Positions 39,011 to 45,997 of a DNA stretch of 64,000 nucleotides are shown here, in pieces; positions within the stretch are counted from its first letter, which is position 1; each line of letters starts with the position of its first letter. The DNA is from Mobula hypostoma. Its lineage: Eukaryota. The notes under the pieces are model-generated. The model was not told the DNA's origin and ran no database searches. It was given only the letters and a program-made list of their open reading frames with translations. Made by a program: the position numbers and the translations under genes. The stretch spans positions 41,108,001 to 41,172,000 of the forward strand of contig NC_086108.1 in the NCBI RefSeq assembly GCF_963921235.1. Direction: 5' to 3'.

Positions 39011-39532
39011 GTCAATGTGTAAGCTTCAGAATATCTTATTTGGCAGAGGACAGAGCAGTAACACAAACAAATTGGGTTTATTTGTCACGGTCCCGACTGT
39101 TAATTCCTCTTATTCTCCTAGTTCCCTTTTCCCCATGTTCTCCTGAGCTCCTTGATTGTGGCAACTGATTCCCATCTAAACCTGCAGCATAAAAACCCCA
39201 GCTTTGCATCCACTCGTTGCCAGATCGTTGCTTCAGCCAGCATGGTAATTCACGTTCCTGACTATTTAGAATGGTGTATTCTAAGTTTTACTTCAGTACT
39301 GAGGTTTACCTGTGTAACTCTGTCTCTCCGTGTCAAGATAAGTATTGCCTACTGTTGGTCTTTCCTTTTGTCACTCCATGTCAAGATAAGGGTTGCCTGC
39401 TGTTTGCCTTTCCATTTAACGCTCCGTGTCAAGATAAGTGTTGCCTACAGCCTGTCTCCTGTTTGCCATTCAGCTCCAGCAACGCCGTGTCAAAAAAGTT
39501 TTGCCTGCCTCCTGCTCTTCTGTTCATCTGCG

Positions 39533-39830
39533 CTGTTTGCCTGTGTTAACTCTGTCTCTCGATCGCTTAGAATTGTGTATTCTAAGTTCTGTTCCCGCGC
39601 TGTTTGCCTGTGTTTAATCAGTCTCTCAACCGCTTAGAATTGTGTATTCTAAGTTCTGTTTCCGCACTGTTTGCCTGTGTTAACCCTGTCTCTCGGCCGC
39701 TTAGAATTATGTATTCTAAATTCTGTTTCTGCGCTGTTTGCCTGTGTTAACTCTGTCTCTCGGCTGCTTAGAATAATGTATTCTAAGTTTTGTTTCCATG
39801 CTGTTGCTTGCCTGTGTTAACTCTGGCTCT
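39533..39830 (+). repeat. 67-bp tandem repeat (about 4.5 copies) inside the 5' LTR
   Basis: Units starting CTGTTTGCCTGTGTT at 39533, 39600, 39667, 39734 and about 39801. Confidence 0.9.
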
Positions 39831-39917
39831 CCGTGTTAACAGGAGCATGGCATGCCGACCACTGTTCTCCCCTTGTCCGCATCCCTGCTCTGCCTCGTCC
39901 TGCCGTCCGTTTACACT

Positions 39918-39985
39918 CTCCACTGGCTCAGTGGTTAAATGCCACATTTTCACCATAGTGACCCGGGTTCGATCCCCGGTCAGCC
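39918..39985 (+). ncRNA. tRNA-Glu-derived cassette in the 5' LTR
   Basis: A box TGGCTCAGTGG, TTTCACC anticodon region, T-arm CCGGGTTCGATCCCCGG. Confidence 0.7.
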
Positions 39986-40214
39986 TCGCTCACTCCTCGG
40001 CTTTCCTCTGCCTAATCCTCGCTCCCCAGCCTTCCCTGCAACCAAAAATAAACACTCTTCTGATCACGCTACCTCCGTGTCAGTGTCCTGCATTTGAGTT
40101 CACCCGTAATCTCCGTGACAGAACGGTCTGGCCAAATTGGACCCAGTGGACACAAACACTATCCTACAAGCCCTCACCATCCAAAGTTCCCTACTGAAAC
40201 CCTGCCCAGAGAGC

Positions 40215-43350: not shown

Positions 43351-43833
43351 ATTGAGAAACATCTAGAAATTTTTCATATGGAATTCCAGAATATATTAGA
43401 TGCTGATAGAAATGAGGAATTGGATAAAAGTATAACTTAGTGTCTTAAATCCAAGAAGGCCTTGGGGAGCTGAGGAAAATTCTAGAAAGACATATCCATA
43501 ACCAGGGCTTGGCTGCCATTGAGAAGTGTGGAGAAGCTGCTCTGAATGATCCCAAGATGTATGTACAGACAATTCTGGATGTTCATAAGAAATATAATGC
43601 ATGAGTGATGTCAGCTTTCAACAATGATGCTGGTTTAGTGGCTGCTTTAGATAAGGGTTGTGGCCATTTCCTAAATAATAACACAGTCACAAAAATGGCT
43701 GTCATCAAGTAAACCTCCGGAATTATTTGCACGATACTGTGACTCTCTACCGAAGAAAAGCTCCGAGAATCCTGAAGAAGCTGAGCTTGAAGACACACTT
43801 AATCAAGTGATGATGGTATTTAAGTATATTGAA
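43351..43833 (+). pseudogene. CUL1: Captured cullin-1 fragment, continuation, intronless
   Basis: [22 protein letters not shown]...[47 protein letters not shown]...[39 protein letters not shown]. Confidence 0.96.
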
Positions 43834-45030
43834 GCCATACCAGTTCAAGCACCAGAGGACGAAAGTCGAACACAATCACGAGAAAAGACTACAGAGGTTG
43901 AAGATAAAGCAAGAAACCTGACCAGTGATGTAAGCAGCCAGAACAAACCAACCACTCGTGCAGCTGAGAAAGTAAGCAGTCCTGAGCACTTGTCTGTAAT
44001 TGAGTGTTACATGTCAATTTTTTTAAATTAACCGTAAGCATCATTTAGGTGCACCTGAAAGAGGCGGGTCGATGACGTCATTATAACAAATGCACGGATG
44101 CTTTTTCTATTTGATTCAAGAGGTTTCTGGAAAGATTCGTCAGTTAAACGATTCAACAGACTATGAGCTACCAGCAAGGGAGTGAATTGAGTTGAATGAG
44201 TTGAATGAGTTGAAAAGTTCACTACAGCAGTGGGCAGACCCAATATTTCTCCGTGTCGGAAGATTGTGATAATTTGCGGCACACAGTGCATATTGGGTAA
44301 GTGACTGTCAGTTTGTATGATCCATAGTTGGATTTCTGGAGTATTCTGTGGCGACCACTTTTTGTTAACCTTATCATGGATTCGGGTGTGTTACGTGGCG
44401 ACCACTTGTGTTAAGGTTTATTCCGTGACTGTCAACTTGTGATATCCCTACATGGATTTTGGAACTTAAGCGTCACCTTGTTATCCCTGCATGGACTCTA
44501 GTATTTAAGTGATGACCACTCGCCTTCTGGAATCTTCTGTGACTGTCACCTTGGGTCACCAAATGTGGATTTATGAACCCTACCTCACAGACACCTGTAC
44601 CTGTTCCCGTGGACTTCAGAACCTTCTGGATTGCCATTCTAGGGCTCTGTTTAAATTGTCTATATTTTGGGTTGAGTAAGACTTGGGAAGAATTGTTTCC
44701 AGACCTCCACAGTTTGTGAGCTAAGATGCACTGCACTGTTAATTTTGGTTAGGGGAGTAATTGTTTTAATTGACTATTAAATTGAAAATATAGATGTTTA
44801 ACATAAAAAAATCTGTGTCTGTGGTCTATTGCTGTTGGCACGTAACACTGAGCAAGAAAAACGTTCACTGACTTCAACAAAAGAGAAACCAACAACTGAT
44901 TTAAATTCGGGAAAATTTCCAGCACCAGTATCAGGTACAAGATCAAGAAATCAATCAATCCTGTGATTAAAAAAAAAAGGCGTAAAAGAGAAGCAAGTCC
45001 AGAATGCAAAAGATGATAACATAAAATTCA
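43834..45030 (+). pseudogene. Unidentified S/T/E/K-rich coding-like cargo, split by a solo LTR
   Basis: Open frame [18 protein letters not shown]...EHLSVIE continues as QEKRSLTSTKEKPTTDLNSGKFPAPVSGTRSRNQSIL once 44005-44852 is removed. Confidence 0.55.
44005..44847 (+). mobile_element. Solo LTR of a different family
   Basis: TGTTACATG...CACGTAACA inverted termini with flanks TTGAG/CTGAG (5-bp TSD, one mismatch). Strand inferred from an ATAAA-like signal near the right end. Confidence 0.8.
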
Positions 45031-45206
45031 AGCTACCCAGACCCAGGTGCATTCATCCTACGATCCACGTCTCCCAACTGAAACCTGTGTCTGTCAGCCC
45101 ATTGTGCCTTCCTGCCGAACCCCCCCCCCCACCCGCCTGGGTCGTCGACAATCCGGGCAAGCCCGGTGATTCGCCTGGAGGTTCCCGTTGGGGGGCAGGG
45201 GAATAC

Positions 45207-45997
45207 CGTAATGGTGCCGACCAGTAATTCCTCTTGTTCTCCTAATTCCCTTTTCCCTGTGTTCTTCTGGGCTCCTTGATTGCAGTACCTGATTCTCATC
45301 TAAACCTGCAGCATAAAAACCCCGGCTTTGCATTCACTCGTTGTTTCAGCCAGCATGGTAATTCACGTTCCTGGCCACTTAGGACGGTGTATTCTAAGTT
45401 TTACTTCAGTACTGAGGTTTACCTGTGTAACTCTGTCTCTCCGTGTCAAGATAAGGATTGCCTGCCATTTGCCTTTCCATTTGCCGCTCCGTGTCAAGGT
45501 AAGTGTTGCCTGCCGCCTGTCTCCTGTTTGCCGTTCAGCTCCAGCAACGCCCTGTGTCAAGAAAAGTTTTGCCTGCCTCCTGCTCTTCCATTCATCTGCG
45601 TTGTTTGCATGTGTTAACCCTGTCTCTCGGCCGTGTATTCTAAGTTCTGTTTCCACGCTGTTGTTTGCCTGTATTAACTCTGTCTCTCCGTGTTAACAGG
45701 AGCATGGCATGCCGCCCGCCATTCTCCCCCAGCCACGCTCATCCCCTTGTCCGCATCCCTGCTCTGTTTCGTCCCACCGTCCATCTACACTCTCCGCTGG
45801 CTCAGTGGTTAGACGTCGCGTTCTCACCGTAGTGACCCGGGTTCGATCCCCGGTCCAGCCTTGCTCACACCTCGGCTTTCCTCTGCCTAATCCTCGGTCT
45901 CCCCGACCTTCCCTGCAGCCATTATTAAACACTCTTCTGATCACGCTACCTCCGTGTCAGTGTCCTGCGTTTGGGTTCACCCGTTCTCTCCGCGACA
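45207..45997 (+). repeat. 3' LTR
   Basis: CGTAATGG...CCGCGACA, collinear with 39083-40120 but with fewer internal repeats. Confidence 0.92.
45792..45860 (+). ncRNA. tRNA-Glu-derived cassette in the 3' LTR
   Basis: TGGCTCAGTGGTTAGACGTCGCGTTCTCACCGTAGTGACCCGGGTTCGATCCCCGGTC resembles vertebrate tRNA-Glu(CTC). Confidence 0.72.

Follow-up and report, generated by a model that had tools for sequence, protein, structure and literature searches.

How do pieces of several unrelated host genes, all in sense orientation, come to lie side by side between the two long terminal repeats (LTRs) of one mobile element? The question is raised by positions 39083-45997 of a stretch of 64,000 nucleotides from the ray Mobula hypostoma (RefSeq assembly GCF_963921235.1, contig NC_086108.1, 41,108,001 to 41,172,000, forward strand), here called the window, to whose first letter the positions below refer. 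We interpret this interval as one copy, old and no longer active, from a family of non-autonomous LTR retrotransposons of the Ty3/gypsy type, whose ancestors would have lost reverse transcriptase (RT), RNase H and most of the integrase (IN) and would have taken up, stepwise, pieces of spliced host mRNAs from BOD1L1, ROCK1, CCDC93 and CUL1. To this explanation as a whole we assign a probability of about 87%, a joint figure for all of its parts.

Architecture and cargo of the element

A first-pass annotation, made from the sequence alone, had delimited the element by two LTRs, a TTATT target-site duplication (TSD) and a polypurine tract, and both a reading of the sequence and a repeat search recover them. 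The short gag and IN stubs that it described match gag-bearing relatives and the IN end of an autonomous-type relative, L043 (82%). According to a Pfam domain search, the sole RT in the interval is that of an inserted long interspersed nuclear element (LINE). The element is composed as follows.

39078..39082, no strand: left TSD copy, TTATT; identical 5 nt at 45998-46002
39083..40120, plus: 5' LTR, 1038 bp, TG...ACA (sequence reading and repeat search); homologous LTRs flank other copies
40121..40196, plus: leader and gag N-terminal stub, matching the gag start of the relatives L028, L029, L030 and L048
40197..40214, plus: second small gag bit (..CCCTGCCCAGAGAGC, gag PLPRE region), from an alignment with L028 gag; joined to ROCK1 via GAGC
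40212..40316, plus: ROCK1 coiled-coil fragment; spans an exon-exon junction, parental 82-nt intron absent
40317..40588, plus: CCDC93 N-terminal fragment; four parental exons, ending inside the fourth
40589..40745, plus: CUL1 fragment a (LTNLLKD..RREYDE); spans an exon junction whose parental intron measures ~6.6 kb
40746..40789, plus: CUL1 fragment b, start (STQDELARK..); joined to fragment a at ATGAA, inside exons on both sides
40790..43350, plus: LINE, 5'-truncated, endonuclease and RT (Pfam Exo_endo_phos_2, RVT_1), (ATGGTTTCT)-like 3' end
43351..43834, plus: CUL1 fragment b, remainder (to ..VFKYIE); joined to BOD1L1 over TTGAAG (43829-43834)
43835..44004, plus: BOD1L1 C-terminal fragment, part 1; ~aa 1761-1816 of the Narcine protein
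44005..44852, no strand: 848-bp insertion with TGTTAC..GTAACA ends and a (T/C)TGAG duplication (sequence reading)
44853..45023, plus: BOD1L1 C-terminal fragment, part 2; ~aa 1816-1875, frameshift near 44955
45024..45189, plus: IN C-terminal tail (..KFKLPRPRCIHPTIHVSQLKPV..) and sequence up to the polypurine tract; start ~45024, 82% to the L043 IN end
45190..45206, plus: polypurine tract GGGGGGCAGGGGAATAC, adjoining the 3' LTR
45207..45997, plus: 3' LTR, 791 bp, TG...ACA; fewer 67-bp repeats than the 5' LTR
45998..46002, no strand: right TSD copy, TTATT, identical to the left copy

Concerning the host pieces, a 105-aa open frame (40119-40433) runs from the gag start through ROCK1 into CCDC93, and in the PDB it matches CCDC93 (8f2u_N residues 27-77, E 2e-18) and the ROCK1 coiled coil (E 5e-3); the CCDC93 piece also matches the Pfam family CCDC93_N. 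The longer ROCK1 piece of a relative is 79-83% identical to ray ROCK1 as against at most 66% to ROCK2, and the ROCK1 cargo reaches 97-98% to the parental exons. The stretch 43675-44028 matches CUL1 in the PDB (1u6g residues 413-458, E 2e-17). Comparison with the parental exons confirms the borders 40316/40317 and 40588/40589 to the nucleotide, so that the sense-strand pieces of ROCK1, CCDC93 and CUL1 lie where the first-pass annotation had placed them.

That annotation had left a further segment unidentified. Nothing in Pfam or the PDB matches it, and a word-indexed protein search returned only two element-derived gene models from other rays. An exhaustive HMMER search, however, matched it to a 1883-aa protein of Narcine, named BOD1L1 by its source. 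In BLASTP, open frames of relatives align to residues 1235-1343, 1408-1541 and 1739-1816 of this protein; the window itself (43834-44004 plus 44853 to ~45020) aligns to ~1761-1875. The own-genome BOD1L1 gene was found at C5:89.72-89.74 Mb and is 92% identical to an element copy over 231 nt. On these alignments we assign the fourth piece to the C-terminal part of BOD1L1; it was the first capture of the family, not an appendix. All four cargo genes lie in sense orientation.

The two large blocks that interrupt the cargo are private later insertions of this copy: the LINE block (2.56 kb) is absent from 14 of 14 other copies holding both of its flanks, the 848-bp block from 16 of 16, and the segments 40121-40789, 43351-44004 and 44853-45199 are contiguous in other copies. 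From the reading of its sequence, the 848-bp insert is probably a solo LTR of another family.

The LTRs of the window copy are ~9% divergent over 545 aligned nt, and their lengths (1038 and 791 bp) differ because of their numbers of a 67-bp tandem unit, which occurs five times in the 5' LTR (39460-39861) and fewer times in the 3' LTR (45562-45700). The polypurine-tract region matches the corresponding region of L043 (int3 295-341), and the IN tail gives a weak Pfam match to SH3_Tf2-1 (E 0.034). The gag start codon is mutated to TTG at 40136-38 in the window copy, while the gag of L028 is recognized by Pfam as Retrotrans_gag (E 8e-14). Two further observations concern the LTR. An 11-nt inverted repeat (39919-39929 and 40140-40150, 10 of 11 positions complementary) links it with the gag start, 20 nt from the LTR end; both arms hold a CpG, and the pattern of decay preserves the pairing. 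We considered this repeat as a self-priming site and dropped the idea because it does not adjoin the LTR. In addition, the stretch 39923-39975 and its counterpart at ~45800-45855 (TGGCTCAGTGG ... GGTTCGATCCCCGG) resembles the A and B boxes of RNA polymerase III promoters, of the sort found at the start of tRNA-derived short interspersed elements; ARAGORN predicted no gene there and Rfam no tRNA, the sole Rfam result being a sub-threshold match to a small nucleolar RNA, taken as chance.

Intron loss and the joints between the pieces

If the pieces derive from mRNAs, they should lack the introns of the parental genes, which lie at four loci (C1, C18 and two C5 sites 71 Mb apart). In ROCK1 (C1:196.886 Mb, L041) the element fuses two exons exactly, without the 82-nt intron. 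The CCDC93 cargo comprises four exons that are separated by ~3.1, 0.8 and 2.0 kb in the parent (C18:187.16 Mb) and ends 33 nt into the fourth. The CUL1 parent lies on C5, minus strand; here the cargo starts 18 nt before an exon end and crosses the 6.6-kb intron, fragment a leaves the second exon 27 nt before its end, and fragment b resumes 24 kb downstream inside another exon. Its end lies a further 22 kb away, at nucleotide 25 of one more exon. At least 53 kb of the CUL1 gene are in this way condensed to 684 nt of element. The exon maps of CUL1 and BOD1L1 are partial, and the exons needed were located by short sequence patterns. The absence of introns, already claimed by the first-pass annotation, is established for ROCK1, CCDC93 and CUL1, exon junctions being spanned in each; this cargo was therefore captured from spliced mRNAs.

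We then looked at the borders. Microhomology was scored at the six joints for which both partners were read:

RT start to BOD1L1: GAAAG (5 nt)
gag to ROCK1: GAGC (4 nt)
ROCK1 to CCDC93: A (1 nt)
CCDC93 to CUL1: none
CUL1a to CUL1b: ATGAA (5 nt)
CUL1b to BOD1L1: TTGAAG (6 nt)

Four of the six carry 4-6 nt, while by our own estimate a random joint should share 4 nt or more in ~1.6% of cases; the observed frequency is therefore far from chance. No joint examined falls at a splice site, all of them being inside exons. On reading the sequence we found neither a poly(A) tract nor a separate duplication at any piece border, in accordance with the earlier annotation. Sense orientation, microhomology and the lack of A-tails and separate duplications match the signature of LTR-mediated retroposition, as characterized in the relevant part of a survey of such events (PMC5131818).

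These borders weigh heavily against the idea that each host piece is an independent processed pseudogene, made by LINEs and landed in a pre-existing LTR element. LINEs are active in this genome and one has entered the window copy; however, the flanking duplications of the 7-20-bp type and the poly(A) tracts that such insertions leave are missing at every border, both ends of each piece are truncated within coding sequence, neighbouring pieces adjoin one another and overlap by 0-6 nt at most, all are in sense, and identical junctions recur in at least 21-25 dispersed copies. We regard this origin as very improbable.

The microhomology most likely points to template switching by RT. By copy-choice, the enzyme of an autonomous relative may have changed template during minus-strand synthesis, passing at the microhomologies from the element RNA to host mRNAs packaged with it and back. 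Capture at the DNA level or by read-through, as in the retroviral oncogene model in which only the 3' junction is made by RT recombination, or the end joining of free cDNAs by microhomology, would give the same end product (spliced sense cargo, non-homologous 3' junctions), and microhomology fits end joining as well. However, read-through would require a nearby insertion at each of four unlinked genes, and none of the 5' junctions examined lies at a splice site, although read-through plus splicing favours that position. The jump within CUL1 at ATGAA is typical of copy-choice, and under end joining the sense orientation of four pieces out of four has only 1 chance in 16. We therefore consider these routes unlikely.

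Dispersed copies, relatives and the order of capture

Copies were searched for in the 3.48-Gb assembly. The interior 40121-40789 has at least 25 near-full-length matches, the window included, on many contigs and with 78-91% identity (best 40 of 180 candidates scored). A 23-mer beside the CUL1a/b joint occurs in 21 element copies and in the parent gene, and its reversed control nowhere. Seven other copies have both ends in view: five show perfect and distinct 5-bp duplications (TTCTA, ATTCC, GAGAG, AGAGA, GGGCA), one matches at 4 of 5 positions and one is unclear. Since the duplications differ, the whole chimera has transposed repeatedly. Within nine copies, the two LTRs have diverged by 0.10-0.15 substitutions per site, and the insertions are therefore old.

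The same data bear on whether the mosaic is one molecule at all, or an assembly chimera or collapsed repeat. The region is rich in repeats, and the best DNA runs may derive from the assembled sample. The same junctions are nonetheless found at 25 or more loci with differing flanks and duplications, and DNA contigs with three other organism labels run across chimeric joints, reaching at least 31 nt beyond the joint in both directions (among the matches listed, 31 of 602): X10 bridges all three joints, X5 the ROCK1/CCDC93 and CUL1a/b joints, and X9 the CUL1a/b joint. From this it follows that the family is shared between species and that an assembly chimera, which the first-pass annotation had named as a possible refutation, is excluded; we give that reading practically no weight.

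Relatives lacking part of the cargo are preserved in the same genome. L043 represents the autonomous type (LTR, gag, protease, RT, RNase H, IN with rve and SH3_Tf2-1, LTR), its frames being broken; the relatives that match the gag start and the IN tail of the window copy carry the Pfam domains Retrotrans_gag, RVT_1, RT_RNaseH_2, rve and SH3_Tf2-1. For the linker between protease and RT the genome offers 3514 candidate sites; 150 were scored, and among these no open frame exceeds 696 aa. The most abundant form (397 candidates) carries BOD1L1 only: in L048, L028, L029 and L030, gag, protease and the first ~50 RT residues are followed by BOD1L1 and the IN tail, with no other cargo. A third group (L025, L026, L027) has more gag, a longer ROCK1 piece and CCDC93 to ~residue 230 or beyond, and no CUL1; because their ROCK1 and CCDC93 pieces are longer, these copies cannot derive from the CUL1 form. 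Judged from these intermediates, BOD1L1 came first, then ROCK1 and CCDC93, then CUL1.

The following course would account for them. In a first step, the 3' part of BOD1L1 would have been joined between the RT start and the IN tail; in a second, ROCK1 and CCDC93 would have displaced the protease together with most of gag and some of BOD1L1; in a third, two CUL1 segments would have taken the place of the distal CCDC93 and of a further part of BOD1L1. Since the LTRs, the polypurine tract and the leader with the gag start were all retained, the chimeras may still have been packaged, reverse-transcribed and integrated in trans; they would thus have spread to a few dozen copies, of which the window copy later received the LINE and the 848-bp LTR-like insertion. 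Serial capture by a non-autonomous element, as suggested in the first-pass annotation, is supported by the intermediates in the same genome and by the lack of an RT of its own.

Some of these relatives deserve a description of their own. L048 (G000:C1:227209600-227216400, minus strand) has LTRs that are 84% alike and a stop-free BOD1L1 frame of 494 aa, its gag and protease being broken; from this frame, the original BOD1L1 capture covered ~aa 1235-1876. L025:2181-2762 (minus strand) is a 194-aa open frame running from ROCK1 into CCDC93 in a relative without CUL1. L026:2861-3501 is a LINE-type zf-RVT fragment inserted within the long CCDC93 piece. L027 (G000:C9:186321000-186326000) shows gag, ROCK1, the CCDC93 N-terminus, the protease/RT linker, the 5' part of BOD1L1, a second piece from the middle of CCDC93 and the 3' part of BOD1L1, a mosaic which suggests recombination among family RNAs. 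Two tandem chimeric elements with the order LTR-interior-LTR-interior-LTR, L034 (G000:C9:45955500-45963000) and L033 (G000:C2:50543000-50551000), probably arose by unequal recombination between LTRs.

The CUL1 form itself falls into two subfamilies, separated by an 8-nt deletion in ROCK1 that is present in 11 of 17 aligned copies. The deleted sequence (TTGAAGAT, window 40217/40218) lies between direct repeats, and its loss returns the gag stub to the ROCK1 frame, the six undeleted copies being out of frame there.

In other rays, the joint of RT to BOD1L1 is also found in a Mobula birostris "uncharacterized protein" model (P0001; protease, RT start, BOD1L1), and a Hemitrygon akajei model of the same name (P0002) consists of gag joined to BOD1L1. 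A search of other species for chimeric ROCK1-CCDC93 gene models returned genuine CCDC93 fragments only.

Several points weigh against the explanation given here. Two of the six joints have 0-1 nt of microhomology. Template switching itself is not visible in the sequence, and traces much like those seen here would be expected if cDNAs had been joined by microhomology or if read-through transduction had been followed by recombination. Intron loss covers three of the four genes, and ROCK1 and CCDC93 may have entered in one event or in two. By eye, no TGG-type tRNA complement directly follows 40120, the 11-nt inverted repeat being the sole complementarity detected, and the primer-binding site listed in the first-pass annotation was not confirmed. 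L043 shares only ~72-84% identity, in LTR parts and the IN tail, and may not be the true helper. Finally, all copy counts are lower bounds.

Reading frames, precedents and significance

We also evaluated whether the cargo could encode a protein. For 22-25 copies compared with 555 parental exon sites, substitutions were counted if present in at least two copies but in less than half. These shared substitutions are distributed over codon positions 1, 2 and 3 as 40, 51 and 33, and comprise 23 synonymous, 91 non-synonymous and 10 stop-creating changes; the synonymous share is 18.5%, as against a random expectation of 20.5% (unweighted) or 27% (transition-weighted). Of 22 copies, 20 share a TGG-to-TGA stop in CCDC93; one of them is L026, which lacks CUL1, and the stop therefore predates the CUL1 capture. 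By this pattern the cargo has decayed neutrally and is no working gene; nothing points to a functional protein. The neutral substitutions and the shared TGA led us to reject selection on the cargo. A search of sequencing runs listed none of RNA that contains 40121-40789. We also rejected the 494-aa BOD1L1 frame of L048 as a trace of constraint: it is likely the best of ~400 copies, its gag and protease are broken and its LTRs are 84% alike.

It might still be proposed that the chimera, or one copy of it, is a domesticated host gene encoding a gag-ROCK1-CCDC93(-CUL1-BOD1L1) fusion protein. The large share of junctions that keep the parental frames (9 of 11), the restoration of the gag-to-ROCK1 frame by the deletion in 11 of 17 copies and the open ROCK1-CCDC93 frame of L025 are what such a gene would show. 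Against it stand the even spread of neutral shared substitutions across codon positions with a synonymous share of 18.5%, as against 20-27% at random, the TGA of 20 of 22 copies, older than the CUL1 capture, the loss of the start codon in the window copy and the 10-15% divergence of the LTR pairs. We find domestication very hard to credit.

The frames nevertheless call for comment. Nine of eleven phased joints keep the parental frames, where one third is expected (binomial ~0.003, our own estimate, computed for 8 of 10). In frame are RT to BOD1L1, an internal deletion of BOD1L1, the older gag to ROCK1, gag bit 2 to ROCK1, ROCK1 to CCDC93, CCDC93 to BOD1L1, CCDC93 to CUL1, CUL1a to CUL1b and CUL1b to BOD1L1; out of frame are gag piece 1 to piece 2 (in the older subfamily) and BOD1L1 to the IN tail. 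As a speculation that we hold rather doubtful, the excess would not be due to chance, and propagation would have needed an unbroken frame from the gag start almost to the 3' LTR. The in-frame joints include internal deletions, and the largest subfamily is marked by the 8-nt deletion that restores the frame. Such a frame could shield the genomic RNA from nonsense-mediated decay or reflect a need for translation in cis, and only frame-keeping captures would then found new lineages. Selection for a long frame fits the early joints. The three joints of CUL1, however, are situated 3' of the older TGA and are not accounted for in this way. If true, the frame rule would be a selectable constraint on which host exons a retroelement can shuffle.

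The closest precedents are chimeric LTR retrocopies of metazoans. In the portions of Tan et al. (2016, Genome Res, PMC5131818) considered here, LTR-mediated retroposition is reported for zebrafish, chicken, mouse and human; some retrocopies fuse at least two parental genes, and at one mouse locus four genes and an Alu are combined. As in those cases, the ray element holds intron-free pieces of host mRNAs between LTR-element sequence, with microsimilar fusion points and no poly(A) or duplication of their own. In contrast to the retrocopies described there, which are young and treated locus by locus, the ray chimera kept transposing as a family of at least 25 copies and its genome retains the stepwise intermediates; cartilaginous fishes are not among the species that those portions list (PMC5131818).

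A second precedent is the maize element Bs1, with three host-gene segments (Jin & Bennetzen 1994; Elrouby & Bureau 2001, 2010; via PMC13317346). In the sections of that source dealing with Bs1, it is, like the ray element, an LTR element without genes of its own that holds several unrelated host genes from distinct transductions and a hybrid frame with gag; unlike the ray element, it is a plant element whose chimeric frame is reported as transcribed and translated (PMC13317346). In contrast, the ray cargo decays neutrally, with a shared stop and a lost start codon, which argues against a working frame. The ray element holds four genes in dozens of copies, Bs1 three. The copy number of Bs1 is very low.

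In acute transforming retroviruses, a spliced cellular mRNA replaces viral genes, giving a defective genome that is rescued by a helper, often with an in-frame gag fusion, the 3' junction being made by non-homologous RT recombination. Unlike oncogene transduction, the captures in the ray element are germ-line, ancient and serial, the cargo is not selected for function, and no envelope gene or infectious stage is evident. ETn/MusD, LARDs and TRIMs are further non-autonomous LTR elements. Of this kind is also the mouse MaLR, mobilised in trans by MERVL according to the passage on it in PMC5131818. Like MaLR-type elements, the ray family keeps LTRs and cis signals, has no RT or IN and would depend on a related autonomous element; MaLR-type interiors are usually of unknown or element origin, whereas in the ray element each interior segment has an assigned source, either a named host gene or the parent element. 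Pack-MULEs, Pack-CACTA and Helitrons, as treated in the pertinent part of PMC13317346, are likewise non-autonomous and amplify fragments of several unrelated host genes; however, what they take up is genomic DNA, which retains its introns and may lie in either orientation, while the ray cargo is intron-free, all in sense and placed between LTRs.

The first-pass annotation was not aware of such a system in this lineage. Its kind is already known from the retrocopies of Tan et al. (2016) and from Bs1. In the open-access literature we found no paper joining BOD1L1, ROCK1, CCDC93 or CUL1 with "retrotransposon", and no report of LTR retrocopies in chondrichthyans, the single match being unrelated. 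The process is known from maize, flies and mice, and what is unusual is the four-gene cargo, the dozens of copies, the survival across ray species and the preserved intermediates.

It should be noted that copies of this family, annotated as "uncharacterized protein" in other rays, could be mistaken for paralogues of ROCK1, CCDC93, CUL1 or BOD1L1. For the biology of these genomes, the family extends LTR-mediated gene capture to the cartilaginous fishes and shows that a chimera of this kind can remain mobile long enough to reach dozens of copies and can be retained in several ray species. With at least three rounds of capture and parental sequence for six junctions, it is a well-preserved natural record of exon shuffling by reverse transcriptase.

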